From Candidatus Beckwithbacteria bacterium CG10_big_fil_rev_8_21_14_0_10_34_10 (lineage in GTDB: Bacteria; Patescibacteriota; Microgenomatia; UBA1400): a DNA stretch of 64,000 bases. The notes under the pieces were generated by a model that ran no database searches, was not told the DNA's origin, and saw only the letters and a list, made by a program, of their open reading frames with translations. Below, in pieces: positions 28,388 through 43,023 of this stretch; the first letter of the stretch is position 1; every line of letters begins with the position of its first letter. Location of the stretch: the NCBI GenBank assembly GCA_002773945.1, contig PEZT01000010.1, forward strand, positions 4,028 through 68,027. Reading direction: 5' to 3'. The position numbers were made by a program, and so were the translations under genes.

Positions 28388-29193
28388 TAATATTCTTCTT
28401 TTTCTAATAACTGGCTATCAAGTTTTTTATATATCTTTTCCATTGACTCTTTCTTCTGCAACTGCCAAAGCTTGACGTAAATAATAAAAGCGTTAAAAAC
28501 TTGATAAACCACAGCAATAAAACCTTCCATCCCTTCCGTCAACCCCTGTTTAATTATTCCCCGCTGCCAAAATTCTCGGAAACCAGCAGTTATAAAATTC
28601 CACCATTTGACTTTTGAATGATTGGCTTGAAAAAGCAAAGCAGCTTCAAGATCAGTATAATTAATTGTTTTCCTAAGACACCAATTAATTCCCCTGTGAG
28701 TTAAATGAATTATGGATCCTTTAAGTTTACCCATTTTACCTTTTATTTTAGGATACTCATGGAGTTTTCCCTGCCATTTGATTAACTCATTTTTATTAAT
28801 TAATCTTGTTTGTAAATCTGGATACCAACCACCCTTTCTTAAGAATTTTCCCAAAATATAATTCTGGCGCTTAACTTGAAAAGCAAAAATATTTTTAGAC
28901 GGCCTTAAGTTATCGATTTCTTTTTTTAAAGACCTTGTCATCCTTTCATCAGCATCAAGATAAAAAATCCAATCAGAAGTAGCTTTTTTAGCGGCAAAGT
29001 TTCTTTGGGAAGAAAAACCTTGCCATTTGTTATGAAAAACCTTGCTCTTATAAAGTCGACAGATTTCCAGGGTTTTATCAATACTGCCACCATCAATAAT
29101 AACAATTTCACCAGCCCAACCACTAACTGACTTTAAACAATTAGTAATAAAGTTTTCATTATTTTGAGTTAAAATTAAAACGCTAACTTTCAT
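28387..29193 (-). CDS. GT2 family glycosyltransferase (DADE-type), paralog of 26066-26845
   Basis: VSVLILTQNNENFI, IIDGGSIDKT and YLDADERMT motifs. Confidence 0.75.
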   Translation of the reverse strand: MKVSVLILTQNNENFITNCLKSVSGWAGEIVIIDGGSIDKTLEICRLYKSKVFHNKWQGFSSQRNFAAKKATSDWIFYLDADERMTRSLKKEIDNLRPSKNIFAFQVKRQNYILGKFLRKGGWYPDLQTRLINKNELIKWQGKLHEYPKIKGKMGKLKGSIIHLTHRGINWCLRKTINYTDLEAALLFQANHSKVKWWNFITAGFREFWQRGIIKQGLTEGMEGFIAVVYQVFNAFIIYVKLWQLQKKESMEKIYKKLDSQLLEKEEY

Positions 29194-29936
29194 TTTTTAA
29201 ACAATCTCCCCTCTTTATTAAAAACATATAGAAATAAAGTCCATATAATTCCTAAGCCGTATTTAACTGAATTCCAAAAACTGGCTGAAGAAGCTTCGGG
29301 AAAATAGCGGACTGGAACGGGAATTTCACCTACTTTAAAATTATTAGCCACGGCTGAAATTAAAATCTCCTGATCAAAAACAAAACTATTAGACATTCTC
29401 ATAAAAGGAATTTTTTCTAAAGCTTTAGCTGAGTAAGCCCTAAATCCGGTATGATATTCAGATAAAGTCAAACCTAAAACCACATTCTCTAAAATTGTTA
29501 AAAAACGATTAGGAAAATATTTCCAACTAGGCATGCCTCCGTCAAAAGCTTCTTGCCGAGAACGAATCCTTGAACCCAGCATAATGTCAGCCCTGCCTTT
29601 AGTAATCGGATAAATTAACTCCCTGGTTAAAGTGGCATCATACTGATAATCAGGATGAATCATAACCACAATGTCTGGCTTTCTTTTTAAAGCCTCCCAA
29701 TAGCAAGTTTTTTGATTTCCCCCGTAACCTAAATTAGAAGAATGAAGAAAAACTTTTAACTTAAGCTTCTTAGCTATTCTAACCGTTTTGTCAGAAGAAC
29801 CATCATCAACTAAAATAACCTCATTAACCAAATCTTTTGGGATATCATTATATGTTTTTTCTAAGGTTTTAGCCGCGTTATAAGCCGGCATAATAACAAC
29901 TACTTTTGGTTTTTTTTTACCTTTTAATTCTGGCAT
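29190..29936 (-). CDS. GT2 polyprenyl-phosphate sugar synthase (Dpm1-like)
   Basis: IMPAYNAAKT, LVDDGSSDKT, HPDYQYD and HTGFRAYS motifs. Confidence 0.7.
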   Translation of the reverse strand: MPELKGKKKPKVVVIMPAYNAAKTLEKTYNDIPKDLVNEVILVDDGSSDKTVRIAKKLKLKVFLHSSNLGYGGNQKTCYWEALKRKPDIVVMIHPDYQYDATLTRELIYPITKGRADIMLGSRIRSRQEAFDGGMPSWKYFPNRFLTILENVVLGLTLSEYHTGFRAYSAKALEKIPFMRMSNSFVFDQEILISAVANNFKVGEIPVPVRYFPEASSASFWNSVKYGLGIIWTLFLYVFNKEGRLFKK

Positions 29937-31647
29937 ATTTTTTTATTCCCAAGCTAATAAAAACTATTAAAGTCAGGAATGATACTAAGTTGCTAACTAA
30001 TCTTAACTTTGTCTCTTTAAAAATTAACTCGACTAAATGATCTCCTTGGGTTAATTTTATCTTTATTCTACCATCATCTTGATAAGAAATCTCAGTTTTT
30101 TTACCATCAATAAACAATTGCCAACCCGGATAATATGCCAGCTTAGTGATAATCTCCGCCTTTTCAGACTCAACCTGACTCTTAAATTTAAAAAAATTAG
30201 ATTTTCTTTCTAAAAGATTATTGTGACTTTCCCCGCTTTCAGGATTAAGCTGGTCTTTCATTTTTTCATTGTTAGTATAGTTAAACCCCCTGGGAGCATA
30301 ATCATTATGTTCACTACTTGTTTCTTCACTCTGCCAATACTCAGAATCAGGAAAATAAGTATACTGATTCACTTTTAAGTGATTCCTGTTCCCATAAAAA
30401 GCTAAAACAAAAATAAAACCAATCAGTCCCCACTTAAAAAAATTATTTTTTAACCCAACCGCCAGGCTGCCAAACAAAATACTGGCGCAAAAAACCGCTA
30501 CCCCTAAAAACCGCCAAGGTATATCGACCATTAAAAACCTATTAATATAAACATAAAGCCAATTGGAATTAGCCAGCATTAAATAAATAGAAAAAAAGAA
30601 AGTTAAAAGAAAAAAAATTATTTTTGAATAAACTACTTTAATAATTTTTTTATTAAATTTAGTAAAAGTAAAAAATAACAAAAGCAAGCTTGTTAAAACA
30701 ACCAGCCACTGGGCAATTCCTACTTGAAAAGACATCATGTCATCTTTCACTCCAGGCATAGAAAAACCATAGCCCCATTTAGAATAAAGCAGTTGTTTTA
30801 AAGTCACAAAATGGGCTTGATAATAACCACCCAGGCCGCCAAAAACATCAGCCACAATCGTATTCTTTCTTTCTAAAGCGGCAGGAAGCCAATAATAAGT
30901 AGTTAAAAGGAGACTTATTAAGCCTGATAAAAAACTAGAAATAAGGTATTTTATCCGCTCTTTGGTTTTAACTAAGTTAAAACCAAACCAGCTAATTAAA
31001 GGAATTAACCATAAAAACAAAGTAATCGCATGAGAAAGAATTACTCCCGCTAAAGAAAAGGCAGTTAAGTTTAACCAAAAGAATTTCTTTTTTGAATTTT
31101 TTCTTAAATTTAATAAACCTAAAAAAACTAAAGGGATAAAGACAAAAGTAACTGCTTCTCCTAAAGCCGCCCTAACAAAAATATTAAGAAATCTGTATGG
31201 CGCCCAAAGATATAAAAATCCACTTAAGAACCCAGCTAACTTTGATGACCAAAGCTTTTTACTAAACCAATACATACTTAAACCAGAGGCAAGATAAGTA
31301 ATAATAAAAACAAACTTTATTGCCCCTCCAAGATTTCCACTAACAAGATACCAACCCTCAGCCAGCCAAAAGGGCAATCTATAGGTAAAAACAAAAAGGG
31401 GATAACCAAATCCAGCCAACGCATTTCCAGCCCATCTTACTGGTAACTGGCCATCAAGTAAACCTTGATGGAAATGTTTTAACCTAATTATTTGATGCCG
31501 ACCGTCATGGCTGGTATAAAAACCCGAATGAAATAAGGATTTTATTCCTAGTAATCCCAAGAGCAACAAAATAACAATATAAATTTTACCTTTCATAAAA
31601 ACCAATTTGTTTAAAAGTTTAAAAATATTTTTATTAGAAATTAGCAC
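29917..31647 (-). CDS. YfhO/PTPS-related-like GT-C-type membrane protein, paralog B
   Basis: FYTSHDGRHQIIRLKHF...PVRWAGNALAGFGYP N-terminal motif and C-terminal YYPGWQLFIDGKKTEISY...GDHLVELIF. Confidence 0.55.
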   Translation of the reverse strand: MLISNKNIFKLLNKLVFMKGKIYIVILLLLGLLGIKSLFHSGFYTSHDGRHQIIRLKHFHQGLLDGQLPVRWAGNALAGFGYPLFVFTYRLPFWLAEGWYLVSGNLGGAIKFVFIITYLASGLSMYWFSKKLWSSKLAGFLSGFLYLWAPYRFLNIFVRAALGEAVTFVFIPLVFLGLLNLRKNSKKKFFWLNLTAFSLAGVILSHAITLFLWLIPLISWFGFNLVKTKERIKYLISSFLSGLISLLLTTYYWLPAALERKNTIVADVFGGLGGYYQAHFVTLKQLLYSKWGYGFSMPGVKDDMMSFQVGIAQWLVVLTSLLLLFFTFTKFNKKIIKVVYSKIIFFLLTFFFSIYLMLANSNWLYVYINRFLMVDIPWRFLGVAVFCASILFGSLAVGLKNNFFKWGLIGFIFVLAFYGNRNHLKVNQYTYFPDSEYWQSEETSSEHNDYAPRGFNYTNNEKMKDQLNPESGESHNNLLERKSNFFKFKSQVESEKAEIITKLAYYPGWQLFIDGKKTEISYQDDGRIKIKLTQGDHLVELIFKETKLRLVSNLVSFLTLIVFISLGIKKYARIKR

Positions 31648-33331
31648 TCAAGGTATAATAAACTTCATTATTAAACTTACTCTTTATTTTAGTAATGACT
31701 CTCTTGTCTAAGGTTTTATCTCCTTTTAAAACATATATCTGCTTTAATTTATCGTTTGGCAGGGGATTATCAACAAAAATATATTTATCAAACTTCTCTA
31801 CCCATTCTAATCCAACCGGATAGCCTGAATATCTTTTTACTTCTTGACTGAATTCTAACGGTGGATATGCCCGGTAAAAAAGCAAATAAGCATAAGCCCC
31901 ATCAGAAGAGATATTAAAAACAATCTCTTCTGCCTCGGTTTCATATCCCTTAAGATAAACCAAAGCTTCTTTTAATCCCGGCTGAAGCTCCGATGGTGGG
32001 TTTTTCCGGTAGTCAATAAAATAGGATTTAGTGAACTGAAAAAAGTTTACCAATAAAACAAACAGCGCTATATAGCCTAAAAATTTAACTTTTCTAAGCA
32101 AAAAGGTTAAGCCTAGGGCAGACAAAAAAATCAAAATTAAAAACATATTTAAAAGTCTAGTGGCATGGGGAGCATCAACAGTCAAAGCTGAAGCTATGGG
32201 AGTCAGAATAAAAAACACCGTCAGAAAAAATTTATTTTCTTTTTTAATCTCCTTGCTTTTTATAAATAACATTAATCCAACCAAGGATAGAAAACCAAGA
32301 ATGAGATAAAAATGAGGCGTTTGGGGAATTTTATGCCAGGGGTGAGTCCCTCCCCCACCAAAAAGAAAATTAGGTGAAAAAGATTTCAAATAATTTTGTA
32401 AAAATATTTTTCCGTAAGCAAGATATTGGTTATAAAAAAGCTTTGCTTTTAAAGAACTTTCAGCCGCCATTTTTAATTGCTTATCATATATATTTAAAGC
32501 AATCTGGGGGTCTCCAAAAATAGTGACTCTCTTTTTCTGCTTGCTAACAGCACTTTGACTTAAAAGAACTAACCCGAAAACAATAAGAATAACTATTAAA
32601 CCAATAATTTGTTTACCAAAGAATCCTTTTTTCTTTTGAAAAAAGTTTATTAAAATAAAAAATCCCCAGGCAATAACAAAGATAGGCCAGATAACTAAAG
32701 AACTTGAATAGGTAAAAAAAGTTAATAAGAAAAAAAGAATAATTAATAAATTTATTTTTCTAAAGCGGTTCTTTACCAGTAAAAAAAGAATTAGAACATT
32801 AAAAAACAAGGCTAAAATGGCTTCAAATGAAAAGCGGGAAAAGAAAATATGCCAAGGAGAAATAGCCAGAAGAAAACTAGCCATTAAGCCGGTTAGTTTC
32901 CCCAACCTAAAACTTTTTTCTGATGACTTAAATAATTCTTTTGTCAGAAAATAAACCATCAAGACCGTTAATCCACCAGTAAAAGCAGCCCAGAAACGAA
33001 CACTAAATTCATTAAGGCCGAAAACAGCAATCGCCATACTGGTAAAATAAATATAAAGAGGTGACTTGTAATCCCCAAATGATTTAAAGCTTAAAGGAAA
33101 CCTTTTCCCCCACTCATCTCTCCCCGTCTTTAAAATACTGTAAGCATTATAGCCGATGGCTGGCTCATCTCTATTAAAAGAAGCTGGAACACTACCTAGG
33201 TTGTAAAAACGAACTATAAATCCTAAAGTAAAAATAAACAATAAAATAAGATCAGTTTTTTTAAACCTTTTTAAAATGAATCCTCTTAAAGCGGTTCCAA
33301 AAGCTTTTAATTTAATTAGTAATTTTTCCAT
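31634..33331 (-). CDS. PMT_2/GT39-GT83-like GT-C glycosyltransferase, tandem paralog 1
   Basis: Loop-1 motif FNRDEPAIGYNAYSILKTGRDEWGKRFPL after TM1, and a PWHIFFSRFSFE motif. Confidence 0.65.
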   Translation of the reverse strand: MEKLLIKLKAFGTALRGFILKRFKKTDLILLFIFTLGFIVRFYNLGSVPASFNRDEPAIGYNAYSILKTGRDEWGKRFPLSFKSFGDYKSPLYIYFTSMAIAVFGLNEFSVRFWAAFTGGLTVLMVYFLTKELFKSSEKSFRLGKLTGLMASFLLAISPWHIFFSRFSFEAILALFFNVLILFLLVKNRFRKINLLIILFFLLTFFTYSSSLVIWPIFVIAWGFFILINFFQKKKGFFGKQIIGLIVILIVFGLVLLSQSAVSKQKKRVTIFGDPQIALNIYDKQLKMAAESSLKAKLFYNQYLAYGKIFLQNYLKSFSPNFLFGGGGTHPWHKIPQTPHFYLILGFLSLVGLMLFIKSKEIKKENKFFLTVFFILTPIASALTVDAPHATRLLNMFLILIFLSALGLTFLLRKVKFLGYIALFVLLVNFFQFTKSYFIDYRKNPPSELQPGLKEALVYLKGYETEAEEIVFNISSDGAYAYLLFYRAYPPLEFSQEVKRYSGYPVGLEWVEKFDKYIFVDNPLPNDKLKQIYVLKGDKTLDKRVITKIKSKFNNEVYYTLSANF

Positions 33332-34992
33332 GAGACAAATGTTTCCATATTTTTTATTTGGCTCCCTTTATAAATTTCTTTTCTGGTACCAATCAATAAA
33401 ACATTCTCAATCTCTTTATCTTTTTCAAAATTTATTGGCCTAAATTCTATTTTACCAACTTCTTTAGTTTCTGAGTAATTCAAAGGCTGATTAGCTAAAA
33501 TCTCTTGCCTTTGATTCTGAAATTCCTCTAGAGAATAATTAGAGTATAAAAGGTAATATAAATAGGGCCGGGCATAAAAATCAGTAAAAACCACTTTCTC
33601 TGCCCTTTTATAATTTTGATTAAGAAAATCAATTGCTTCTCTATAGCCTCCCTGCCAAGCAATAAATGAACGGCTAGAATAATGAACATAGTAATCGTGA
33701 AGATAAAAGAAAAACTGGAAAAATAATAAACAGGAGCCAGCTATTAGAAATATTTTTCTATTTTTAACCACTTTAATTAATTGAAATAATCCAAAACCAC
33801 TAATTATATTTATAAATAAAACTCCATTTAAAGACCTCAAGGCATGAGGAATTTCATAAGGAACACAAGCTGGCAAAAAAGAAACTAATAAAGCTAAGTT
33901 TAAATAAATAAAAAGCTTTTTACTTTTTAAAAACAAATAATATTCTCCATAAATAAAACCTAAAAATGCAATTAGAAACAAAACTCCTACCCTGCCAGAA
34001 GAATGGCGGAGATTAGAATCGCCGGAAAGCAATAGAAACTGTCCAGAAAAATGATCAAAAAAGTGAATTCCTAATTGCTTTCCCTGATACAAAAAACGAT
34101 GATGAATTTTTTTGGCTAAAAAAGAACTACCGTCTTCCTGAATTAATCTATTAGAATATTGAATTAAAAGAATATCTGAAAGAATATTTTTAGTACTTAA
34201 TCTGAATTGGTCTGCTTTAGCGGCCAAAGAAGTATTTTTTAAAGACAGAAAAGACAAATATACTACCATTAAGATAAAAAGAAAAATAGCAATATTTTTA
34301 AAAGATTTTTTCCAAAAGACAAAAAAAGTTAAAACCAGTAGAATTGGTAAAACAATTCTGGCTGAGTAATAAGTATAAATTCCAAAAATAGCAAAAATGG
34401 CTGTTAATCCCAGTAAACCCTTTTTATTTCTCGCTTTTAGAAAAAACAGTAAAGCCAAACTATTAAAAAGCAAGGCTAAATTTCCTTCAAAAGCAGCTCT
34501 GGAAAACTGTAAATGCCAAGGACTAATGGCAAGTAGTAATGAAGCTATTAATGATAAGTATTTAGAATTTAGGCTTGAATATTTAATTTTATCTTTATTA
34601 ATATTTTTATTCTTAAATAGTTCTTGGGTAAGAAAGTAAACTACTAAAACTGTTAAAGTTCCGGCTAAAACTGAAGGAAGACGAATAGCTATCTCCGGAC
34701 TAGTCTTAATCAGTTTAAAAAATGGGACGGCCATTAAAATATAACCAGGCAGTTTATAATCACCCCAAGAAGGATAAATTGGCTGCCACCATGAATTTCC
34801 ATGATGATCTTTACCCGTTAAACTAATTGATTTAGCGTCTAAAGCCATGGCCGCTTCATCCCAATATAATCCAGGAGGTATTTGATTAACTTTATAAACC
34901 CTTAAAATAAAGGCTAATAAAATTACTAGGAATAATAATATTTTATTATTTACTCTTAATTTTAAGTATTTATTTTTAAATTTAAATTTCAT
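33316..34992 (-). CDS. PMT_2/GT39-GT83-like GT-C glycosyltransferase, tandem paralog 2
   Basis: LYWDEAAMALDAKSISLTGKDHHGNSW and PWHLQFSRAAFE motifs. Confidence 0.65.
   Translation of the reverse strand: MKFKFKNKYLKLRVNNKILLFLVILLAFILRVYKVNQIPPGLYWDEAAMALDAKSISLTGKDHHGNSWWQPIYPSWGDYKLPGYILMAVPFFKLIKTSPEIAIRLPSVLAGTLTVLVVYFLTQELFKNKNINKDKIKYSSLNSKYLSLIASLLLAISPWHLQFSRAAFEGNLALLFNSLALLFFLKARNKKGLLGLTAIFAIFGIYTYYSARIVLPILLVLTFFVFWKKSFKNIAIFLFILMVVYLSFLSLKNTSLAAKADQFRLSTKNILSDILLIQYSNRLIQEDGSSFLAKKIHHRFLYQGKQLGIHFFDHFSGQFLLLSGDSNLRHSSGRVGVLFLIAFLGFIYGEYYLFLKSKKLFIYLNLALLVSFLPACVPYEIPHALRSLNGVLFINIISGFGLFQLIKVVKNRKIFLIAGSCLLFFQFFFYLHDYYVHYSSRSFIAWQGGYREAIDFLNQNYKRAEKVVFTDFYARPYLYYLLYSNYSLEEFQNQRQEILANQPLNYSETKEVGKIEFRPINFEKDKEIENVLLIGTRKEIYKGSQIKNMETFVSWKNY
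34486..34524. repeat. 39-nt segment nearly identical (1 mismatch) to 36196-36234 in the neighbouring PMT_2 paralog
   Basis: ttcaaaagcAgctctggaaaactgtaaatgccaaggact compared with ttcaaaagcCgctctggaaaactgtaaatgccaaggact. A second similar block is at 34628-34659 versus 36351-36383. Confidence 0.7.
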
Positions 34993-36695
34993 TGTTCTCT
35001 TATTTCAAAAGCAACATTTTCATCTAAAAAATTAATTGTTTTCAAAAGTCTTCCGGCTGGTATTTCTCCAGCTGATCCCACCATTAGATTCTTTGACCCT
35101 TCTTTTTTTAGACTATCTTCTTCTAAATTAAAAAATACTTTACCTAATCTTGGAATATCAGGTGTTGACTTATATGGTTCAACCAAATCTTGAGCTTTTA
35201 ATGGATCCATTTGAGTGTAAAAAAGATAGTACATATAAGCCCTGCCATAAGCATTAGTTAAATAAATGCTTTCATATTTATTCTCATTTTCCTTAATAAA
35301 GCCGACCGCCTCTTTTAAACCGTATTGCCAATAAGCTGAATAAAGCTTGGGATAATGATGGTAATAAAAATGAAGGTAAAATATAAATTCTATTAAAATT
35401 ATAAAACCAACGGTTAAAAACAATGGTTTTTTATTTATTAACCGTTTTCTTATATAAATAGGAGACTTACTTATAGCAGTAAATAACCCAACTAAGCCCA
35501 AGCTGGAAATAATCATAAAAATTGGAAGGGAAAAAATTGTTCTTAAACTATGAGGGGCGGCTTTAGTAATCGCTCCCGGAACTGGCCCAATTAATAACCA
35601 AGCTAAGATAAGCTGAGCTTGTTTTCTCTTGAAATTCTTTAAAAGAAAAACTACCCCTAAAATTAAAGTAACTATTTCCCAATGATAAAGCTGGCCAAAT
35701 TCTTGGATAGAATGACGAGGGTTTATATCTCCAGACAAAAATAGAAAAGAACCGGAAAAATGGGTAAAGTATTGGTTTAAAAACAAACGGCTATATTCCC
35801 AAAAACGATGATGGATGACTTTTGCCATTACTCCACTCCTATCTTTCTCTATTTTTTTATTTGATTCTAAAACTGGATCTAGGGTAGCAAAAACACTCGT
35901 CTCTTGAAAACGCTGCTGAACCTGGCCGCTTTTTAATGAACTTATTAAAGGAAAAGATAAAACCAAACCTAAAGCTAAAGCCATAATTAAAATTATTTTT
36001 TTTATCTTTAAAGTTCTTTTAAGAAAAACAAAAGTTAAAATCAGAACCAATAAAAAGCTAAAAACCCTCGCTCCGTGATAAGCATATAAAGAAAGACCAA
36101 AACAACCAGCTGAAAATATTAATAAATAGTTCTTTTTAAATGACTTTAGAAAAAGAAAGGCTCCAGTAGAGGTTAAAAACAAGGCTAGATTAGCTTCAAA
36201 AGCCGCTCTGGAAAACTGTAAATGCCAAGGACTTATCGCCAATAATAAGACAGCTATTAGAGGTAAATATTTAAAATTTAAAATTGAATATTTTGAATAT
36301 CTATTTTTATCTTTATAAATATCTATATTTTTACTTTTAAATAGCTCTTTTGTAAGAAAGTAAACCACTAGAACTGTTAGAGTACCAAAGAGGGCTGAGG
36401 GAAAGCGAACGCTAAATTCATTTAAACCAAAGACCGCGATTGAAGGAATTAAAGTATAAACATATAAAGGCGGTTTAAAATCCATAAAAGACTCCAAATA
36501 AACAATTGGCCAGGAGTTTCCCCGATGATCTCTACCTGTTTTTAAAAGTGAATAAGCATCATAACCTAAAGCGGCTTCTTCCCAATATAAAGAAGATGGG
36601 AACTGACTGAGTTTATAAAAACGCAAGAAAACAGCCAATAAAAGCACTAATCCTAAAACCAACCAAACCAAACGACTGTTTTTAATCTTTTTCAT
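34989..36695 (-). CDS. PMT_2/GT39-GT83-like GT-C glycosyltransferase, tandem paralog 3
   Basis: LYWEEAALGYDAYSLLKTGRDHRGNSW and PWHLQFSRAAFE motifs. Closest relative of paralog 2, with shared DNA segments. Confidence 0.65.
   Translation of the reverse strand: MKKIKNSRLVWLVLGLVLLLAVFLRFYKLSQFPSSLYWEEAALGYDAYSLLKTGRDHRGNSWPIVYLESFMDFKPPLYVYTLIPSIAVFGLNEFSVRFPSALFGTLTVLVVYFLTKELFKSKNIDIYKDKNRYSKYSILNFKYLPLIAVLLLAISPWHLQFSRAAFEANLALFLTSTGAFLFLKSFKKNYLLIFSAGCFGLSLYAYHGARVFSFLLVLILTFVFLKRTLKIKKIILIMALALGLVLSFPLISSLKSGQVQQRFQETSVFATLDPVLESNKKIEKDRSGVMAKVIHHRFWEYSRLFLNQYFTHFSGSFLFLSGDINPRHSIQEFGQLYHWEIVTLILGVVFLLKNFKRKQAQLILAWLLIGPVPGAITKAAPHSLRTIFSLPIFMIISSLGLVGLFTAISKSPIYIRKRLINKKPLFLTVGFIILIEFIFYLHFYYHHYPKLYSAYWQYGLKEAVGFIKENENKYESIYLTNAYGRAYMYYLFYTQMDPLKAQDLVEPYKSTPDIPRLGKVFFNLEEDSLKKEGSKNLMVGSAGEIPAGRLLKTINFLDENVAFEIREQ
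36196..36234. repeat. partner copy of the 34486-34524 inter-paralog repeat
   Basis: Direct comparison of the two stretches in the sequence. Confidence 0.7.
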
Positions 36696-38358
36696 TTTCT
36701 GGCTTTAACATTAATCTAACCTGATCAATATCATAAATATTAAAAGCTCCTTCATTATTAGGATATGTTATTTTATCCATTGGCTTAGGAAACCCTTTTA
36801 CTGTTTGAGGATCAACCACTAGAAGAGACTTTTCTGGATAGTTTTTTAAACTCTCCACATTATCAATAAACTCAAACTTACCTAACTTTCTCACCCAAGC
36901 CCAGCCTCCATCTTCAACCTCAACATCTTTTTCTAAGGCAAAATATTCTGCCGGCTTAATCTTAAAGTAAAAAAGGTAGAAAATGTACTGCCGGGCGTCA
37001 TGATTAGCCCTGGAAATATAAATATGATTATAATTAGACTCAACTTCTTTTAAATATTGAAACAGGGGCTTATATTCATAATGACTATACCTTGCTTGCC
37101 TTAAAGGAAAGTAAGTAAAATAGCTAATCAAAAATTCAAATCCAAAAAAGCAGTAAACTAAAATTGGTAGAAGAATAAGAAAAGATAATTTAATTTTCTT
37201 AAGAAAATTAAAAAAATAGACCATTCCCAAGGCGATAAAAATTACTATTGGTAAGACTAAGGGAAAAGCTCTGGTAAAATTTCCCCTGCCCGTTAAAGCA
37301 CTCCCAAATGGGGAAATTAATAGTAAAAAATATAGTATTCTTTTTTTCTCGTTCCTGGCAGAAGCGATTATTCCAATAATAAAAAATAAAATACTAAAGG
37401 AATAGAAATAGGGATAATGGGGTAAAATTGAATAAGCTTTTTCAAAAGCGGGGAAAAATAAAAACTGCGGGCTTAAATGACTAGTGTAGTTAAACAATAA
37501 ATGTTTGGTCCAAAAAACAGGCTTATTAAAAAATAATCGGCAAAATGAAAAAGGGAACTTGGTTAAACAGGCTCCTCTAAATTCATTTAGCTCATCAACA
37601 ATTCCTGTATTTGAAAAAAGACTTAATTGGTAAAACCTTACCAAAAACTTTCCCTGAGTAAAAATAAAGAGAAAAATAGCCGAAATAATTGAAGCTAAAA
37701 ATATCTTAACCGCTAATTTCTTTCTCTGTTTTCTTTCCCTATTAATAAAATAAAGATAAATAAAGGTTAAAGGAAGTAAAATTCTGTAACTATGATATGA
37801 AAAAAAACAAATAAGAGCAATAATTAAACCAAAAAAAAGATAAGCCTTTTTTAACTTGTTCTCTAAAAATAATTTAAAAAAATATAAAGCACCGATAAAG
37901 AAAAATAAACCAATATTAACTTCAGAGGCAGTCCGACTTAAACCAATATGCCAGGGATTAAAGACCAATATAAGTGAAGACAATAAAGCAACTGAATGCT
38001 TTTGCTTCTCCTTATCCAAAAAAAGCAAAACAAAATAGTAAAGTAAAACAACAGTTAAACTCCCTAATAAAACAGAAATTATTTTAGTCCAAAATATTGA
38101 TAAAGGAAAAAACTTAAAAACAATACTTAAAAGATAAATATACACTGGCAACTTCCAATCTCCAAAAGACCTAAACTGAATTGGTAAAAAACTCCCCCAC
38201 TCATCTTTGCCAGTCTGAGAAATTAAATAAGCATTATAGCTTATCGCCGCTTCATCATCAGTTAAGCCAACTGGAACACTCTCCAAAAATAGAACTCTTA
38301 AGAAAAAAGCCACTATAAAAACTAGAAAAAGGATTAGTTTTTGTTTCTTATTAGTCAT
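36682..38358 (-). CDS. PMT_2/GT39-GT83-like GT-C glycosyltransferase, tandem paralog 4
   Basis: GLTDDEAAISYNAYLISQTGKDEWGSFLP and PWHIGLSRTASE motifs. Confidence 0.65.
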   Translation of the reverse strand: MTNKKQKLILFLVFIVAFFLRVLFLESVPVGLTDDEAAISYNAYLISQTGKDEWGSFLPIQFRSFGDWKLPVYIYLLSIVFKFFPLSIFWTKIISVLLGSLTVVLLYYFVLLFLDKEKQKHSVALLSSLILVFNPWHIGLSRTASEVNIGLFFFIGALYFFKLFLENKLKKAYLFFGLIIALICFFSYHSYRILLPLTFIYLYFINRERKQRKKLAVKIFLASIISAIFLFIFTQGKFLVRFYQLSLFSNTGIVDELNEFRGACLTKFPFSFCRLFFNKPVFWTKHLLFNYTSHLSPQFLFFPAFEKAYSILPHYPYFYSFSILFFIIGIIASARNEKKRILYFLLLISPFGSALTGRGNFTRAFPLVLPIVIFIALGMVYFFNFLKKIKLSFLILLPILVYCFFGFEFLISYFTYFPLRQARYSHYEYKPLFQYLKEVESNYNHIYISRANHDARQYIFYLFYFKIKPAEYFALEKDVEVEDGGWAWVRKLGKFEFIDNVESLKNYPEKSLLVVDPQTVKGFPKPMDKITYPNNEGAFNIYDIDQVRLMLKPENEKD

Positions 38359-38409
38359 TTTAAACTTTTTAATTTACATTTTATTAATATTTGTCTTTAT
38401 TTAAAATTA

Positions 38410-39945
38410 TTAGAGTTTAATAATCCTAAAAGATACTGAACCATCTGGAAAATATATCTCCTTCTCTATTTTAGCCCGTGGGGGAATAGATTCCAATGGA
38501 ACTTCTTTAGGAGTGGCAACCAGCAGGACTTTACTAAGGTTTTTATCTTTTTGCCAATTAATCTCTCTAAACTGATACTTGCCTAATTTCTCCTGCCAAA
38601 TCTCTAAAGGTTTTAACTTTTGATAAAACTGAATAAAAATATGAGGCTGACCATACTCTAAAGTAATAATAATCTTTTCCACTTCATTTTCTTTAGTTTC
38701 TACATATTGAACCATTTCTTTATAGCCATATTGCCAATCAGGGGCGGCATAAACCGGCAAACGAACATAATAGGAATATAAATAGTAGCCGATGTTTGTA
38801 ATATAAAAAAGAAAAAATAAAACATAAAAAACCTTCTTATATCTTTTACTTTCAAAAAAATTAAATAGCCTTTTTATTCCTAAACTAATAACAATCATTA
38901 AGGGGATTAATAAATTAGAAGCTCTCAAGCTATGAGGAGCCTCAATAGTAATTATGGCTGGTATTGGCGCTAGAAAAATCCAAGTTAATAATAATTTGGC
39001 CCACTTTTCTTTCTTTTGTTTAAGTAAAAACCAAAATCCAATTAATAAAAACGGGGCTTCAATAAAATAAAATAAGCCATTGCTTTTCATTTTATTGCGA
39101 AAATTGTCATTATTCCCAAAAAATAAAAATTGGGGGGAAAAGTGAACCAAATAACTTTTTCCAATTTCGCCTATTAACTTAAAATCAAATGGTTTTTTCC
39201 CACCTTCCTTAGTGTAAAAAATACCTGTGCTGGTAAATCTGGCCCCTGCTTCTCCGCCTAAATGGATTTTTAATAAAGGCAGGCTCAATAACAAGGCTAA
39301 AAAAAAGCTTAAGCTTAAATATCTTATATTCTCTTTTTTAAATATTTTATGCCAATAAATAATTCCTAAACCAACTAAAAAGAAAGGCAGAAAAAGTTTA
39401 GGGCTATGATAAGAATACATTGCCAGCATAAAACTTAAACTAGACAGAATAAAAAACATGGGTTTTTTTAAACCTTTTAAAAACATTAAAACCCCCGTTG
39501 TTACCCAGAAAAAAGCTAGATTTGGTTCAAAAGCAGGCCTGGAAAACTGAAGATGCCAGGGACTTATAGCCATTAAAAAACCAGTAATTAGGGAAATTTT
39601 ATTATTTTTAAATAACTCTTTTACTAATAAATAAACCACGATAGCTGTAAAAAAACTAATTAGAGCCGAAGGAAAACGAACCGCCCATTCATTTAAACCA
39701 AAAATGCCGACAAAAGGAACGGTCAAATAAACTAAAAGAGGCGATTTATAATCACCAAAAGACTTAAAAGCAAAGGGAAGCCTAAAACCAAACTCATCTT
39801 TTCCGGTTTTCCAAATGGAATAAGCATTGTAACCAATAGCAGTTTCATCCCAACTTAAGCTAGGAGGAACTTTATTTAAACGATAAAAGCGGAGAAAAAA
39901 AGCCAAAATTAAAATAACTAATAGAAAAATCTTTTCCTTTTTCAT
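38410..39945 (-). CDS. PMT_2/GT39-GT83-like GT-C glycosyltransferase, tandem paralog 5
   Basis: LSWDETAIGYNAYSIWKTGKDEFGFRLP and PWHLQFSRPAFE motifs. Confidence 0.65.
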   Translation of the reverse strand: MKKEKIFLLVILILAFFLRFYRLNKVPPSLSWDETAIGYNAYSIWKTGKDEFGFRLPFAFKSFGDYKSPLLVYLTVPFVGIFGLNEWAVRFPSALISFFTAIVVYLLVKELFKNNKISLITGFLMAISPWHLQFSRPAFEPNLAFFWVTTGVLMFLKGLKKPMFFILSSLSFMLAMYSYHSPKLFLPFFLVGLGIIYWHKIFKKENIRYLSLSFFLALLLSLPLLKIHLGGEAGARFTSTGIFYTKEGGKKPFDFKLIGEIGKSYLVHFSPQFLFFGNNDNFRNKMKSNGLFYFIEAPFLLIGFWFLLKQKKEKWAKLLLTWIFLAPIPAIITIEAPHSLRASNLLIPLMIVISLGIKRLFNFFESKRYKKVFYVLFFLFYITNIGYYLYSYYVRLPVYAAPDWQYGYKEMVQYVETKENEVEKIIITLEYGQPHIFIQFYQKLKPLEIWQEKLGKYQFREINWQKDKNLSKVLLVATPKEVPLESIPPRAKIEKEIYFPDGSVSFRIIKL

Positions 39946-40715
39946 GACGAGAATCTACCTAATCTTATTACTAATTTAAAAGCAATTAAAATAGGCTCAA
40001 AAAAATCTTTCCAGGATAGCTTAGATTTACCGGCTCTCCGATCAACAAACACAATCGGCATTTCCTTAACTTTAAACCCGGCTTTAAGAACTCTAAAAAT
40101 TGACTCCATGGAAATGGCCAAACCTTTTTTGGAAAAAAACTGATTAACTTTAATCTTTTCTAAAACATTGCCTTTATAAACTTTATATCCTGAACCCATA
40201 TCTTTAAGCTTAATTCCTAAAACTAACCTTAAAAAAACTCCAGAAAGCTTGGAAACAAAGGTCCTAAAAGGATCTCGGTTCGCATCAGACCCCCCCTTAA
40301 TAAAACGGGAGCCTAAAATTACATCACTCTCCCCTTTTTCTAATTCCCGTAAAAATTGAGGAATATATTTAGGTTGATGAGAAAAATCAGCATCCATTTC
40401 AATAATAACATCAGCTTTTTTATTTAAACAAAATCTAAAACCATCTTTTCCCGCTAAAGCCCTTCCCCTGGGCGGCTGACGGTGAACCACCTTAACATTT
40501 TTATATTTTCCAGCCAAAGCATCAGCTATTTTGCTCGTTTTATCTAAAGAAGCATCATTAATAATAACAATATGAAGATGAGAAACCTTTAATCCTAAAA
40601 TCTTCCTAACTAAAGGCTCTAAATTCTCCTCTTCATTATGACATGGTAAAAACAACCAGATATTTTTAAAAATATACTTTTTTGTTAAACCCTGACTATA
40701 TTTTCCTTTTTTCAT
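39942..40715 (-). CDS. GT2 polyprenyl-phosphate sugar synthase (Dpm1-like), translationally coupled to the heptose pathway
   Basis: LPCHNEEENL, IINDASLDKT, EMDADFSHQP and SGYKVY motifs. Overlaps the upstream nucleotidyltransferase by 20 nt. Confidence 0.7.
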   Translation of the reverse strand: MKKGKYSQGLTKKYIFKNIWLFLPCHNEEENLEPLVRKILGLKVSHLHIVIINDASLDKTSKIADALAGKYKNVKVVHRQPPRGRALAGKDGFRFCLNKKADVIIEMDADFSHQPKYIPQFLRELEKGESDVILGSRFIKGGSDANRDPFRTFVSKLSGVFLRLVLGIKLKDMGSGYKVYKGNVLEKIKVNQFFSKKGLAISMESIFRVLKAGFKVKEMPIVFVDRRAGKSKLSWKDFFEPILIAFKLVIRLGRFSS

Positions 40716-41403
40716 AATCCTCTCTTACCTTTTTTAATCTTTCCGGTGTCCCCATATCCTTAGAATACTCATTGGAATAATAAACATAAAGTTTTTTGTT
40801 TTTTTTTAAAAGATCAGGAATTAATTCTTTTTCTAATGAATATTTAATATTCTGAGGAATATATTTTAAAACTTTAGGTTCAAATATATGGGTTCCACTT
40901 TTAGAAACTGGTTTAAACTTATCTCCCATTTTAGGCCTAAAGAACTTTAAAACTTTAAAGTTCTTATCATATGAAACTAAATCAGAATCATAAGGATGAT
41001 CAGTCTGGTGAACAATAAAAGTTCCGAGACCTCCATTTTTTTTATGAAACTTAGCCATTTTTCTTAAGTTTAAACTAGTCATGACATCTCCGTTTAAAAC
41101 AAAAAAAGTTTCATTTAAATATTTTTCCGCTACTTTTAAAGCTCCTGCTCCACCCATAATGGTCTTTTCATAAGAATAAACAATCTTTACTCCCCACTTT
41201 TTTCCATCCCCAAAGTATTCTCTGACTTTGTTCGGAAAATGGTGAAGATTAATAATAATATCCTTAAAGCCATACTGAGAACATAAAATCACTAAATGTT
41301 CTAAAACAGGCTTATCACCAATTTTAACTAAAACTTTAGGAATTTTATTAGTTAATGGCCTTAATCTCGTTCCTAGGCCAGCCGAAAGGATAAAGACTTT
41401 CAT
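40696..41403 (-). CDS. hddC: sugar-1-phosphate nucleotidyltransferase, HddC-like (D-glycero-alpha-D-manno-heptose-1-phosphate guanylyltransferase candidate)
   Basis: N-terminal MKVFILSAGLGTRLRPLTNKIPKVLVKIGDKPVLEHL. Short (235 aa) NTP_transferase without a beta-helix tail. Sits in an operon with gmhA, hddA and gmhB. Confidence 0.6.
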   Translation of the reverse strand: MKVFILSAGLGTRLRPLTNKIPKVLVKIGDKPVLEHLVILCSQYGFKDIIINLHHFPNKVREYFGDGKKWGVKIVYSYEKTIMGGAGALKVAEKYLNETFFVLNGDVMTSLNLRKMAKFHKKNGGLGTFIVHQTDHPYDSDLVSYDKNFKVLKFFRPKMGDKFKPVSKSGTHIFEPKVLKYIPQNIKYSLEKELIPDLLKKNKKLYVYYSNEYSKDMGTPERLKKVREDYEKRKI

Positions 41404-42011
41404 AACTTCTCCTTTTTAATAATAAAATCAACGGCTTTTTTTAAATCTTTTAAAACAAAGTCTGGCTTAGCCTGATAAACTTCATCTTTGCCCGCATGGC
41501 CAGTTTTAACCAAAATTGTCTTGGCTCCAACTGCTTGACCCATTAATATATCTCTGGCCGCATCCCCAACTACATAAGACTTTTTTAAGTTTAACCCAAA
41601 CAGCTTTTTAACATAATTAAGCATCCCCGCTTTAGGCTTTCTCCAAGAACAATTAAGAATCATTTTTTTATCATAAGCTGTTGGATGATGAGGGCAAAAT
41701 AAAATAACATCTAAAAAGGCCCCTTTTTTATCTAACTGACTCTTTAAATATTCATTTATCTTTATGACTTTTTTAACTGAACAAATCCCTCGGGCAATTA
41801 CTGAAGCATTGTGATGAATAATGATTGGAATATTATACTGATTTAATATTTTAATGGCTTTAAAAACAAAAGGATAAATTTTAAAATCTTTGATTTTATA
41901 AACTAAATGTCTTTCCTCATTAATAACTCCATCTCTATCAATAAAAACACCCCAGTCTCGTTGAGGTTTAAAACCTTTTCTTATATCAACCGGGTGAGAA
42001 GAATTTTTCAT
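41400..42011 (-). CDS. gmhB: D-glycero-D-manno-heptose-1,7-bisphosphate phosphatase (HAD IIIA, GmhB-like)
   Basis: HAD motif I FIDRDGVIN and the GmhB zinc-site signature CPHHP...C.WRKPKAGM. Confidence 0.7.
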   Translation of the reverse strand: MKNSSHPVDIRKGFKPQRDWGVFIDRDGVINEERHLVYKIKDFKIYPFVFKAIKILNQYNIPIIIHHNASVIARGICSVKKVIKINEYLKSQLDKKGAFLDVILFCPHHPTAYDKKMILNCSWRKPKAGMLNYVKKLFGLNLKKSYVVGDAARDILMGQAVGAKTILVKTGHAGKDEVYQAKPDFVLKDLKKAVDFIIKKEKL

Positions 42012-42015
42012 ACTT

Positions 42016-43023
42016 TTATTTTTCCCAAACTTTTAAACCATTAAAATCAAACTCAAAGTCTATCTTTTTAACATCCTCTTTTCTTAAAACTTTTTCTAAT
42101 TTATCTTGTTTTTCCGGTGGGCAGAAAAAAAACATATGGCCACCTTCACCAGCCCCCATTATTTTCCCCCCTCGAGACCCGTTTTTCTTAGCTAATTCAT
42201 AAAGGTCATTGACCCTTGAGTTGGCAATCTTAGGATTACTTCTTTTCTTAAAATCCCAGGCTTCATCTAATATTTCCCCAATTAAATTAAAATCCTCCTT
42301 CTTCCAGGCTTTAATCATTTTATTAACTCCTCTTTTTAAACCTTTTAAAGCCTCAATTTTTTCCTCCTCTTTCATTCCCGCGCTTAGATTTTTTTGCAGC
42401 TTACCAGAATGACGCTTGCCACCAATATAGAAAAGAATCATCCATTTTCTAATCCGTTTAATTAAATCTTTGGGGAAAAACAGGGGAATAACCCCAATCG
42501 ATTCTTTAGCCCCAAAAGTTAAAAGATTAATTCCTCCAAAAGCAGCGGCTAGTTGATCTTGCTTTCCGCCTGACCATTTAAGCTCCTGGGTCTCCATTCT
42601 CCAGGCTAGATAAGCCATTTCCATCCGGCTTAAACCCCGCTTTAACCAATGACTAAAGACAGCAATCATGGCTACTCCGGCACTGCCAGAACTACCCAAT
42701 CCTCCCAAACTTTCTCCTTGAAACTCTACTTTTAATTTAAAGCCTGATTTTATTAAAGGTTTAAAATAATTAATAATGGCATAAACCAAATCAAAATCTT
42801 TTTCTTTACCATAAATTAAATCTTTTTTTAAATCTTTTTCTATAGTTTTCCCTAAAGCTTCAATATATATCTTTTCTTCCTTTATGGGTTTTAAACTAAC
42901 CTGATGATATAAATTTATCGCCAGAGAAAAAACCTTACCACCAAAGTCAGCCGCAAAAGGATTAACATCAGTTCCTCCGCCAATCAATCCAATTCTAACG
43001 GGCGTTTGAGAAAATATTTTCAT
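42016..43023 (-). CDS. hddA: GHMP-family sugar kinase, HddA-like D-glycero-alpha-D-manno-heptose-7-phosphate kinase
   Basis: N-terminal PVRIGLIGGGTDVNPFAADFGG and GHMP ATP-binding motif GLGSSGSAGVAMIA. Confidence 0.65.
   Translation of the reverse strand: MKIFSQTPVRIGLIGGGTDVNPFAADFGGKVFSLAINLYHQVSLKPIKEEKIYIEALGKTIEKDLKKDLIYGKEKDFDLVYAIINYFKPLIKSGFKLKVEFQGESLGGLGSSGSAGVAMIAVFSHWLKRGLSRMEMAYLAWRMETQELKWSGGKQDQLAAAFGGINLLTFGAKESIGVIPLFFPKDLIKRIRKWMILFYIGGKRHSGKLQKNLSAGMKEEEKIEALKGLKRGVNKMIKAWKKEDFNLIGEILDEAWDFKKRSNPKIANSRVNDLYELAKKNGSRGGKIMGAGEGGHMFFFCPPEKQDKLEKVLRKEDVKKIDFEFDFNGLKVWEK

Follow-up and report, generated by a model that had tools for sequence, protein, structure and literature searches.

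A lineage-conserved array of GT-C-fold glycosyltransferase paralogs in Candidatus Beckwithbacteria

Results

A 64-kb stretch of DNA (the window) from Candidatus Beckwithbacteria, an uncultured groundwater bacterium with a small genome, carries six paralogous genes, five of them in a tandem array, whose products are probably non-redundant GT-C glycosyltransferases of the ArnT/PMT_2 clan, building a conserved surface glycan from polyprenyl-phosphate-sugar donors. These enzymes most likely take sugars from lipid-linked donors and attach them to the cell surface. The array is real, ancient and lineage-conserved, and it adds a fresh example to an already known class of enzymes rather than a new type of system.

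All six genes are located on the minus strand. Beginning with A5 (38410..39945, 511 aa, PIS09388.1), the array continues with A4 (36682..38358, 558 aa), the fastest-evolving copy, A3 (34989..36695, 568 aa) and A2 (33316..34992, 558 aa), and ends with A1 (31634..33331, 565 aa); the sixth paralog, S6 (55898..57583, 561 aa), has A1 as its nearest kin. Coordinates and lengths match exactly those of the initial annotation, as do the junctions, namely overlaps of 14, 4, and 16 nt and, between A5 and A4, the sole intergenic gap within the array, 51 nt of AT-rich sequence (38359..38409, minus strand). A5 and the GT2 gene upstream of it also overlap, by 4 nt. Overlaps of 4–16 nt suggest a co-translation of neighbouring array genes; one promoter-like match lies inside the gap, but a promoter/terminator scan of 28–46 kb revealed sites no more frequently than in shuffled sequence. 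The same gene order was found in two independent assemblies (ENA, JGI), which rules out an assembly artefact.

The six proteins are homologous almost from end to end (BLASTP E 1e-27 to 1e-99, 27–38% identity), excluding a chance resemblance. All of them match PMT_2 (PF13231; RgtA/B/C/D-like), with A5 (43.2 bits), S6 (40.8 bits), A3 (30.5 bits), and A4 (28.6 bits) passing the gathering threshold of 26.1 bits and A2 (25.4 bits) and A1 (25.2 bits) lying marginally under it; the homology of A1 and A2 to other copies is unambiguous (E 1e-37 to 1e-99), A2 matching A3 at 1e-99 and A1 matching S6 at 7e-75. PF02366 (PMT) is passed by A3 (31.8 bits) and A5 (29.4 bits) only, and the PMT_4TMC C-terminal domain gave no Pfam match in any of the six at E<=0.01, so that the two domains which together mark GT39 were not found combined in any copy. 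Against the GT83 ArnT equivalog NF009784 (cut-off 567 bits), A1 reached 17.2 and A3 21.2 bits, the others showing no match; the best score for Agl23 (TIGR03663, cut-off 126 bits) was 42.1 bits and covered the N-terminal part only, and NCBIfam returned solely sub-threshold matches, to Agl23, ArnT, and LA_3751. Given these cut-offs and domains, strict membership in GT39 (PMT) or GT83 (ArnT), the families to which the proteins had been likened, could not be upheld; they form a separate subfamily in the PMT_2 clan.

Since a profile of the six paralogs found nothing among PDB sequences at E<=1, a structure comparison was needed. The AF2 model (pLDDT 92.8) is matched better by ArnT, ALG12, and STT3 than by PMTs; PIG-U and GAB1, which are GT-C-fold non-enzymes, are also among the structural matches. 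As in the GT-C_A class, the N-terminal module is polytopic and has its helices in the conserved GT-C arrangement, and conserved acidic residues are found in the first extracytoplasmic loop, with D/E-E directly after TM1. The topology is based on predicted secondary structure and charge bias, helix boundaries being taken from the AF2 model and projected through the alignment. The positive-inside rule predicts an extracytoplasmic position of the acidic loop in every one of the six, in line with the earlier proposal, the K+R density being 0.29–0.40 in predicted cytoplasmic loops and 0.07–0.11 in short external loops of each copy. These boundaries supersede a naive Kyte-Doolittle scan, which gave an inconsistent 6–10 helices and contradictory charge counts.

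The two motifs reported in the initial annotation are present as consensus patterns only, and each had been written one wildcard short (correct: S...TG and PWH...SR). In its corrected strict form, the loop-1 motif fits A1 and A5 only, and PWH...SR fits A1, A2, A3, and A5. The first acid of the loop-1 pair is E in A3 (EE rather than DE), and the second “DE” of the motif reads “DH” in A2 and A3. Invariant in all six proteins (A1 numbering) are E56, the second acid of the pair, D72, D87, K89, P91, P159, H161, S165, R166, E170, and R392, and the equivalents of E56, D72, D87, K89, R166, E170, and R392 are also invariant in a 45-sequence alignment. The first periplasmic loop of ArnT carries the motifs RYA and YFEKP, whose Tyr and Lys are essential (PMC5377068). 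The layout of loop 1 in the array proteins parallels this, an aromatic-A motif being followed about 25 residues on by F-G-D-x-K-x-P; these motifs are analogous to RYA and YFEKP but differ from them in sequence, with the equivalence judged by position. At the RYA position, the motif is G-Y-N-A, with Y-D-A in A3 and the Tyr replaced in A2 (L-D-A) and S6 (F-N-A); at the YFEKP position, it is [FW][GM]D[YWFN]K.P, revealing an invariant Lys and a spacing similar to ArnT.

With the single protein A5 as query, almost all of the related Microgenomates/Patescibacteria loci retrieved proved to carry arrays of 4–7 copies. The array had been called unusual, which is true compared with bacteria in general, but within this lineage it is typical; the six-member family exceeds 6,600 sequence clusters at E<=1e-30. 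For every paralog, an ortholog (40–71% identity) is closer than any paralog in the window (<=38%), for example P0146 for A1 (50%), P0122 for A2 (71%), L001_13293 for A3 (66%), and L001_2232 for S6 (66%), the last with the same flippase and GT2 neighbours, while A4 orthologs reach about 40% only. A3, A4, A5, and S6 each pair with their own ortholog from the relative L001 at 100% bootstrap (L001_11720 in the case of A4); the L001 locus stops short of any A1 or A2 ortholog. With 94% bootstrap for the A2 orthogroup and 84% for the A1+S6 clade, several anciently diverged paralogs are retained as distinct orthogroups (84–100%), and the order A5-type, A3-type, A2-type, A1-type is collinear in the loci L014, L015, and L018. 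A recent tandem duplication is ruled out by the orthologs being closer than the paralogs and by the orthogroup tree. A2 and A3, previously taken for the most recent duplicates, are indeed the closest pair (38% identity overall, 44% in the core), but their split is old rather than recent, both types being present in five other genomes and their orthogroups being sisters (70% bootstrap). Within the library searched, no relevant work turned up on GT-C, GT39, or ArnT in CPR, Patescibacteria, or Beckwithbacteria, nor did any paper found there discuss such arrays.

The C-terminal domains, described before as divergent, show a mean identity of 25% versus 33% for the membrane core, but they are still alignable and homologous. 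Together with EL4 (24%), the C-domain (25%) is the least conserved region between paralogs. Between orthologs, EL4 is conserved equally to or more highly than the remaining core (41–83% versus 38–65%), and the C-domain, with 43–71%, roughly equals the core in conservation. This region-wise comparison was used in place of dN/dS because synonymous sites are saturated, the closest orthologs being at most 71% identical in protein. Being divergent between paralogs yet conserved between orthologs, both regions support distinct acceptor specificities; judged from these sequences, the paralogs may thus differ in acceptor or linkage specificity.

In total, the window encodes at least 14 GT-C-fold proteins, a copy count understated by the initial annotation, as well as 11 GT2 and 7 GT4 enzymes, three methyltransferases, one aminotransferase, and one Wzx-type flippase; nearly every window gene of recognisable family is concerned with glycan synthesis. 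Besides the six paralogs, there are four further PMT_2 ORFs (2639, 12466, 23271, and 50898), three YfhO/PTPS_related GT-C ORFs (20496, 29917, and 59938), and a 555-aa GT-C-fold protein (45235..46902, minus strand) with no Pfam match in our scans. ORF 29917 (29917..31647, minus strand), directly downstream of A1, scored 26.8 bits for YfhO, marginally under the gathering score, and is 29–33% identical to ORFs 20496 and 59938, both of which match PTPS_related above cut-off. A GT2 next to it (29190..29936, minus strand) is a candidate polyprenyl-P-sugar synthase, with NCBIfam matches to AglJ (79.5 bits) and PpgS (64.1 bits) that are both below cut-offs; the pairing of this GT2 with a YfhO-like gene is conserved beside arrays in Gottesman- and Chisholmbacteria loci.

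The GT2 overlapping A5 (39942..40715, minus strand) is DPMS/GtrB/ArnC-like. Among PDB entries, it is matched best by 5MLZ, the Dol-P-Man synthase of P. furiosus, which aligns over the whole catalytic domain (E 1.4e-26); GtrB and ArnC come next (best NCBIfam matches: AglJ, Dol-P-hexose transferase). Adjoining it, Pfam and NCBIfam revealed a GDP-heptose-like sugar-nucleotide cassette of five genes (40696..44341, minus strand), encoding an NTP-transferase, a GmhB-like HAD protein, an HddA-like GHMP kinase, a GmhA-like SIS isomerase, and an HddC-like NTP-transferase; their best NCBIfam matches, GmhA, HddA, GmhB, and HddC, are all below the curated equivalog cut-offs. In L001, the cassette and this GT2 are absent between the A5 ortholog and that of the GT2 at 44375, and no homologs of the cassette were found in any of 21 related loci, which identifies it as a lineage-specific insertion. 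As the closest relative does not have the cassette to which the DPMS-like GT2 belongs, this GT2 is not an ancestral array partner. The GT2 that does show an evolutionary link to the array is the 287-aa one at 44375..45238 (minus strand). Its homologs are located immediately upstream of family members in L001, L014, L015, and L020 and at a distance of two genes upstream in L017, and in L018 (829 aa) and L019 (842 aa) homolog and family member form a single fused protein. With its N-terminal half alone matching DPMS, this 287-aa GT2 is of a generic kind, and its assignment as a polyprenyl-P-sugar synthase is not clear.

Upstream of S6 are a GT2 (57580..58491, minus strand) and a MOP/Wzx-type flippase (58499..59956, minus strand). 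This order of flippase, GT2, and family member recurs in L001, and in L014, L015, L018, L019, and L020 the flippase and this GT2 are part of one cluster with the array and are placed upstream of it. A GtrA-like flippase was not identified adjoining the array. A second DPMS-like GT2 (18604), followed by a DUF2304 gene for a small membrane protein, is located at 18254–19305.

Discussion

In the reading that we favour, each enzyme would have about 11 membrane helices and a cytoplasmic N-terminus, with catalytic loop 1 (D/E-E ... D ... D-x-K-x-P), EL2, EL4, and EL5 predicted to lie outside the cytoplasmic membrane, as is an alpha/beta domain of about 110–145 residues at the C-terminus. A DPMS/GtrB-like GT2 would synthesise the donor at the inner face, from where it would be flipped across the membrane, and each enzyme would move the sugar from polyprenyl-phosphate-sugar to a position or linkage of its own on a glycoconjugate of the cell envelope. 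Acting with the GT2/GT4 enzymes of the island and the Wzx-type flippase, the set may elaborate a surface glycan conserved across Microgenomates. CPR bacteria have tiny genomes and a minimal metabolism, and their envelope building and cell attachment are largely obscure; the sustained GT-C investment of a reduced genome points to a centrally important surface glycoconjugate. Heterologous expression, structural studies, and glycan analysis can now be aimed at concrete targets, namely the orthogroups, the invariant residues, and the two paralog-specific regions, EL4 and the C-domain.

Compared with ArnT (GT83, undecaprenyl-P-L-Ara4N:lipid A transferase), the array proteins show only 13% identity and about 11 predicted helices instead of 13, and they occur in multiple copies, ArnT in a single one. 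As CPR bacteria are thought to be without a Gram-negative envelope (PMC6744442), a lipid A acceptor cannot be assumed. The UniRef name “RgtA/B/C/D-like domain-containing” is attached to four of the six proteins, and RgtA/RgtB/RgtC/RgtD of Rhizobium leguminosarum are likewise several ArnT-like PMT_2 paralogs in one genome. Encoded by clustered genes and using polyprenyl-P-GalA as donor, these galacturonosyltransferases add the same kind of sugar at different positions of one glycoconjugate. RgtA and RgtB, for example, attach GalA to the outer Kdo (PMC4402001). The Rgt acceptor, however, is the LPS core or lipid A of a diderm, and the array is larger and conserved across a candidate superphylum. 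Multiple GT-C paralogs, some in tandem (embCAB), are also found in the mycobacterial EmbA/B/C and AftA-D. These act sequentially outside the membrane on a lineage-defining wall polysaccharide, use polyprenyl-P-sugar donors, and have C-terminal extracytoplasmic domains.

The ALG3/9/12 mannosyltransferases and the ALG6 glucosyltransferase differ from the array in being eukaryotic and ER-lumenal, with dispersed genes and a Dol-PP-oligosaccharide acceptor. It is conceivable, if rather improbable, that the collinear A5-, A3-, A2-, and A1-type enzymes, together with the GT2 that is linked or fused to them, correspond in bacteria to the ALG series, as an obligate ordered extracytoplasmic line making one conserved surface glycan typical of Microgenomates, which in the Beckwithbacterium would additionally be fed by polyprenyl-phospho-heptose, supplied by the inserted GDP-heptose-like cassette and the Dol-P-Man-synthase-like GT2. 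To our knowledge, no polyprenyl-phospho-heptose donor has been described so far. Were this true, the glycan might be the structure that ultra-small bacteria use for contacting other cells.

Conserved orthogroups would also fit protein-specific O-glycosylation or heteromeric complexes instead of one assembly line. As protein O-glycosyltransferases like actinobacterial Pmt (GT39), the paralogs would each modify different secreted or surface proteins (pilins, S-layer, sortase substrates); the PMT_2/PMT Pfam matches, the loop-1 D-E motif, and the Dol-P-Man-synthase-like enzyme adjoining the array recall PMT/Pmt, and eukaryotes keep several PMT paralogs with different substrates. We consider this unlikely, as the structural matches are better for ArnT, ALG12, and STT3 than for PMTs, no copy gave a PMT_4TMC match at E<=0.01 and four of six fail PF02366, the layout of the loop-1 motif is ArnT-like by position, and the context, with a Wzx flippase, many GT2/GT4 enzymes, and methyltransferases, is mostly of the polysaccharide type. 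Moreover, bacterial Pmt is normally single-copy.

That some copies are obligate heteromeric partners or non-catalytic subunits of one or two complexes, comparable to Pmt1-Pmt2, EmbA-EmbB, or PIG-U of the GPI transamidase, is somewhat less likely still. Though overlapping start and stop codons suggest a coupled, stoichiometric expression, neighbouring orthogroups are kept together and collinear, and PIG-U and GAB1 appear among the structural matches, every invariant acidic or basic residue of the putative active site is kept in all six copies, so that none looks like a pseudoenzyme; the formation of heteromers would also be compatible with catalytic activity of each subunit.

Widespread among bacteria are three-component systems for extracytoplasmic glycosylation (Gtr; GT136 pentofuranosyl), in which a polyprenyl-P-sugar synthase and a flippase are combined with a GT-C that has a C-terminal domain for substrate binding (PMC11127046). 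The DPMS-like GT2 genes, the DUF2304 small membrane protein, and the MOP flippase of the window resemble their parts, but Gtr/GT136 systems have one GT-C per module and decorate side chains. It seems very unlikely that the array is a fast-turnover set of interchangeable decorators for surface variation, giving antigenic or phage-receptor diversity as phage-borne Gtr modules for O-antigen glucosylation do. Copy numbers do vary from 4 to 7 per array among genomes, and the heptose cassette is a recent insertion; the duplications, however, are ancient, with orthogroups at 40–71% identity that are collinear across distant genomes, the G+C is uniform (~0.30), and no integrase or transposase domains were found among the Pfam-scanned ORFs.

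Finally, transporters or other polytopic proteins, a reading to which the low Pfam scores (25–43 bits) as weak sequence evidence and a six-protein profile without PDB sequence match might point, are rejected as essentially excluded, both the family placement and the side of the acidic loop agreeing with the glycosyltransferase assignment of the initial annotation.

Composition and Family Assignment of the Array

The array consists of five intact ORFs on the minus strand (31634-39945), namely A1 (31634-33331, 565 aa), A2 (33316-34992, 558 aa), A3 (34989-36695, 568 aa), A4 (36682-38358, 558 aa), and A5 (38410-39945, 511 aa), the last being the first transcribed; a sixth paralog, S6, is an ORF of 561 aa (55898-57583). 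The junctions reported in the initial annotation were confirmed, with overlaps of 14, 4, and 16 nt and a single gap of 51 nt at 38359-38409, and A5 also overlaps the upstream GT2 gene by 4 nt. In each of the 15 pairwise BLASTP comparisons, the match was significant and spanned almost the entire protein, at 27-38% identity and E-values from 1e-27 to 1e-99. The six proteins are identical to PIS09384.1-PIS09388.1 and PIS09404.1 from a 169-kb contig of Candidatus Beckwithbacteria bacterium CG10_big_fil_rev_8_21_14_0_10, and the same genes were found in the same order in two further assemblies (ENA, JGI). NCBI names all six "hypothetical protein", and UniRef lists four as "RgtA/B/C/D-like domain-containing", one as "ArnT-like N-terminal domain-containing", and one as "Uncharacterized".

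The Pfam family PMT_2 (PF13231) matches all six, with A1 (25.2 bits) and A2 (25.4 bits) just below the gathering score of 26.1, and A3 and A5 pass PF02366 as well. The curated NCBIfam cut-offs for ArnT and Agl23 were missed by a wide margin, and a profile of the six revealed no match among PDB sequences. The proteins belong to the GT-C fold class and the PMT_2 clan, and not to GT39 proper, ArnT proper, or Agl23, with ArnT as the closest structure. Based on the Pfam, NCBIfam, and PDB searches, the array family therefore forms a separate GT-C subfamily of the ArnT/PMT_2 clan and is no strict member of GT39 or GT83. A reading of the six as transporters was excluded.

Helix boundaries were taken from an AF2 structure model and projected onto the six proteins through the alignment. 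In every paralog, the six predicted cytoplasmic segments displayed a K+R density of 0.29-0.40, compared with 0.07-0.11 in the short external loops. The predicted topology has a cytoplasmic N-terminus and about 11 membrane helices, and would place on the outer face the D/E-E loop, the PWH...SR...E loop, the P-H..R loop, the long extracytoplasmic loop 4 (EL4), and a C-terminal alpha/beta domain, which in A5 spans about residues 400-511. Since the charge densities of the loops point to such an orientation, the DE loop is predicted to be extracytoplasmic, as initially proposed, rather than cytoplasmic.

Conserved Motifs

Both motifs of the initial annotation had been written one wildcard short. 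With the wildcard restored, the loop-1 motif fits strictly only A1 and A5, and PWH...SR..FE fits A1, A2, A3, and A5; the looser patterns P[WF]H...SR...E and [FW][GM]D[YWFN]K.P fit all six paralogs. Invariant positions include E56, D72, D87, K89, P91, P159, H161, S165, R166, E170, and R392 (A1 numbering), the equivalents of which are also unchanged throughout a 45-sequence alignment that includes distant homologs. A3 carries E-E in place of D-E, and the second acidic pair reads D-H in both A2 and A3. As the putative catalytic residues are kept in all six copies, none looks like a pseudoenzyme. Loop 1, with an aromatic-A motif followed about 25 residues on by D-x-K-x-P, resembles the layout of the RYA and YFEKP motifs of ArnT, a correspondence judged by position only; the Tyr and Lys of these ArnT motifs are needed for activity (PMC5377068).

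Distribution and Age of the Paralogs

Searching with a profile of the six yielded 6,633 cluster representatives at E<=1e-30; with the limit relaxed to E<=1e-10, the number rose to 15,905. All named close homologs were assigned to Beckwithbacteria, Microgenomates, or the "Patescibacteria group". The array, initially described as unusual, is in fact typical of the lineage, as the family almost always occurs in tandem arrays of 4-7 copies in the 21 related loci, which cover Beckwith-, Chisholm-, Gottesman-, and Woesebacteria and other Patescibacteria. It represents a well-defined, lineage-wide array and subfamily of a familiar enzyme class. Several MAG records among L002, L004, L007, L010, L012-L016, and L020 are titled "uncultured Gammaproteobacteria", "Pseudomonadales", or "Methylococcaceae"; their gene order is that of Gottesmanbacteria/Patescibacteria loci and their G+C content is low (0.32-0.47), and these taxonomic labels are probably wrong.

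Each paralog of the window is closer to an ortholog elsewhere (identity of 50% for A1, 71% for A2, 66% for A3, 40% for A4, 65% for A5, and 66% for S6) than to any paralog beside it, the best in-window pair being no more than 38% identical. Among the 83 members placed in a neighbour-joining tree with bootstrapping, A3, A4, A5, and S6 each pair with their own ortholog in L001, the closest relative, with 100% support; L001 stops short of any A1 or A2 ortholog. Bootstrap support is 94% for the A2 orthogroup, 70% for its sister relation to the A3 orthogroup, and 84% for a clade of A1 and S6. The order of A5-, A3-, A2-, and A1-type members is the same in the window, L014, L015, and L018, with A4 as an extra member of the Beckwith lineage. 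A2 and A3 are hence the closest pair, as had been noted from the sequence alone, but, as the ortholog identities, the tree, and the collinear order show, the recent duplication proposed at the same time is incorrect.

Mean identity between paralogs was 47% in extracytoplasmic loop 1 and 33% over the membrane core, falling to 24% in EL4 and to 25% in the C-terminal domain; between orthologs it was 41-83% in EL4, 43-71% in the C-terminal domain, and 38-65% in the remaining core. Most divergent across paralogs, and conserved between orthologs about as well as the membrane helices (EL4 even better), EL4 and the C-terminal domain show the pattern expected for acceptor-recognition elements. Where GT-C structures have been solved, the counterparts of this long loop and of the C-terminal domain touch substrates. 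A C-terminal carbohydrate-binding module has been documented for a GT136 enzyme (PMC11127046).

Genomic Context

Judged by summed ORF lengths, in which overlaps count twice, coding sequence makes up about 99.9% of the window; 52 of the 56 ORFs lie on the minus strand, 25 are polytopic, and the GC skew stays negative along the whole stretch. Almost all genes that can be assigned to a family have a role in glycan synthesis: the inventory comprises 10 PMT_2, 3 YfhO/PTPS_related, 11 GT2, and 7 GT4 proteins, 3 methyltransferases, a DegT aminotransferase, a flavin amine-oxidase-like protein, and a Wzx flippase, and no priming phosphoglycosyl transferase was recognised in the window.

The GT2 gene upstream of A5 (39942-40715, minus strand) matches best the Pyrococcus Dol-P-Man synthase (E 1.4e-26, whole catalytic domain), followed by GtrB and ArnC, and is a candidate polyprenyl-P-sugar synthase. 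Upstream of it, GmhB-, HddA-, GmhA-, and HddC-like genes and a second nucleotidyltransferase make up a putative GDP-heptose-like pathway, with all scores below the curated equivalog cut-offs. This six-gene cassette (39942-44341, minus strand) separates the array from a further GT2 gene (44375-45238), the ortholog of which directly abuts the A5 ortholog in L001. Missing from this position in L001 and from all 21 related loci, the cassette is thus a lineage-specific insertion; its G+C content is slightly raised (0.35 in 42-44 kb versus about 0.30). Its gene content raises the idea of a putative polyprenyl-P-heptose donor.

Homologs of GT2 44375 directly precede family members in L001, L014, L015, and L020, and one lies two genes upstream of a family member in L017. 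In L018 (7479-9968, plus strand, 829 aa) and L019 (7474-10002, plus strand, 842 aa), a homologous N-terminal GT2 is fused to an array-family protein in a single ORF, a fusion that ties the two together functionally. GT2 44375 is a generic GT2 and the evolutionarily linked partner of the array. S6 is preceded by the Wzx-type flippase and another GT2, an arrangement recurring in L001; in L014, L015, L018, L019, and L020, both lie in the same cluster upstream of the array. A1 is followed by a YfhO-like GT-C gene (29917-31647) and an AglJ/PpgS-like GT2 gene (29190-29936), a pair reminiscent of the CsbB/YfhO pair of teichoic-acid glycosylation and also found beside arrays in Gottesman- and Chisholmbacteria.

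Proposed Function

We propose that each paralog would act as a polyprenyl-phosphate-sugar-dependent glycosyltransferase on the outer face of the membrane, with its own acceptor position or linkage, and that, together with the cytoplasmic GT2/GT4 enzymes of the island and the flippase, the paralogs would elaborate a conserved glycoconjugate of the envelope. There is good support for the enzyme class and the orientation, the evolutionary pattern supports non-redundancy of the paralogs, and the type of donor is inferred from what is known of the family and from the context. Rival explanations are variable Gtr-like decoration, heteromeric complexes of the paralogs, and Pmt-type protein O-glycosylation. 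The closest functional analogy is RgtA-D of Rhizobium, ArnT-like paralogs each placing GalA at a different LPS site; for RgtA and RgtB, this is the outer Kdo (PMC4402001). The Emb/Aft and ALG series offer broader analogies. Our literature search found no paper discussing GT-C arrays in CPR bacteria. A survey of CPR protein families says no more than that, among the families enriched in Microgenomates, many are membrane proteins whose function is unknown (PMC6744442). The interest of the array lies mainly in providing an entry point to CPR envelope biology.

Further Genes of the Window

Four further PMT_2 proteins (2639-4108, 12466-13821, and 23271-24824 on the minus strand; 50898-52292 on the plus strand) exceed the Pfam cut-off without exception, with scores of 30.6-42.9 bits. 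In loop 1, they carry motifs unlike those of the six-member family, to which they are at most marginally related (best BLASTP E 1e-6), 2639 and 50898 having no match to it below 1e-3. ORF 29917 and two other PTPS_related/YfhO-type GT-C proteins (20496-22244 and 59938-61653; all minus strand) are mutually homologous with 29-33% identity.

Two tandem polytopic paralogs of about 400 aa (53424-54617 and 54625-55908, plus strand) are 38% identical and share an invariant E-Y-P-P and other motifs. They revealed no Pfam match even at E<=1, no PDB match, and no hhalign relation to the array family, and may represent another GT-C-like family; homologs lie on the opposite strand beside or inside the arrays of L001, L014, L015, L016, and L018. 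Between 45235 and the PMT_2 gene 50898, two large polytopic proteins without Pfam matches are encoded on the minus strand (46875-48404 and 48394-50013). The former has an E-E pair after TM1, the latter an F-D-Q-A-R-D motif there and a BLASTP match to the PMT_2 ORF 23271 (E 1e-11); both are probably further GT-C proteins.

The minus-strand region 18254-19305 may be a further donor-synthase module: a Dol-P-Man-synthase-like GT2 (18604-19305; 5MLZ, E 1.2e-14) overlaps by 4 nt the gene downstream of it, which encodes a DUF2304 membrane protein of 117 aa as a possible small partner. Directly upstream lies a polytopic ORF of 388 aa without Pfam matches (19321-20487). Amid the GT-C genes, a protein of 318 aa without a Pfam match (50000-50956, minus strand) is encoded that consists of a single N-terminal membrane helix and a soluble domain.
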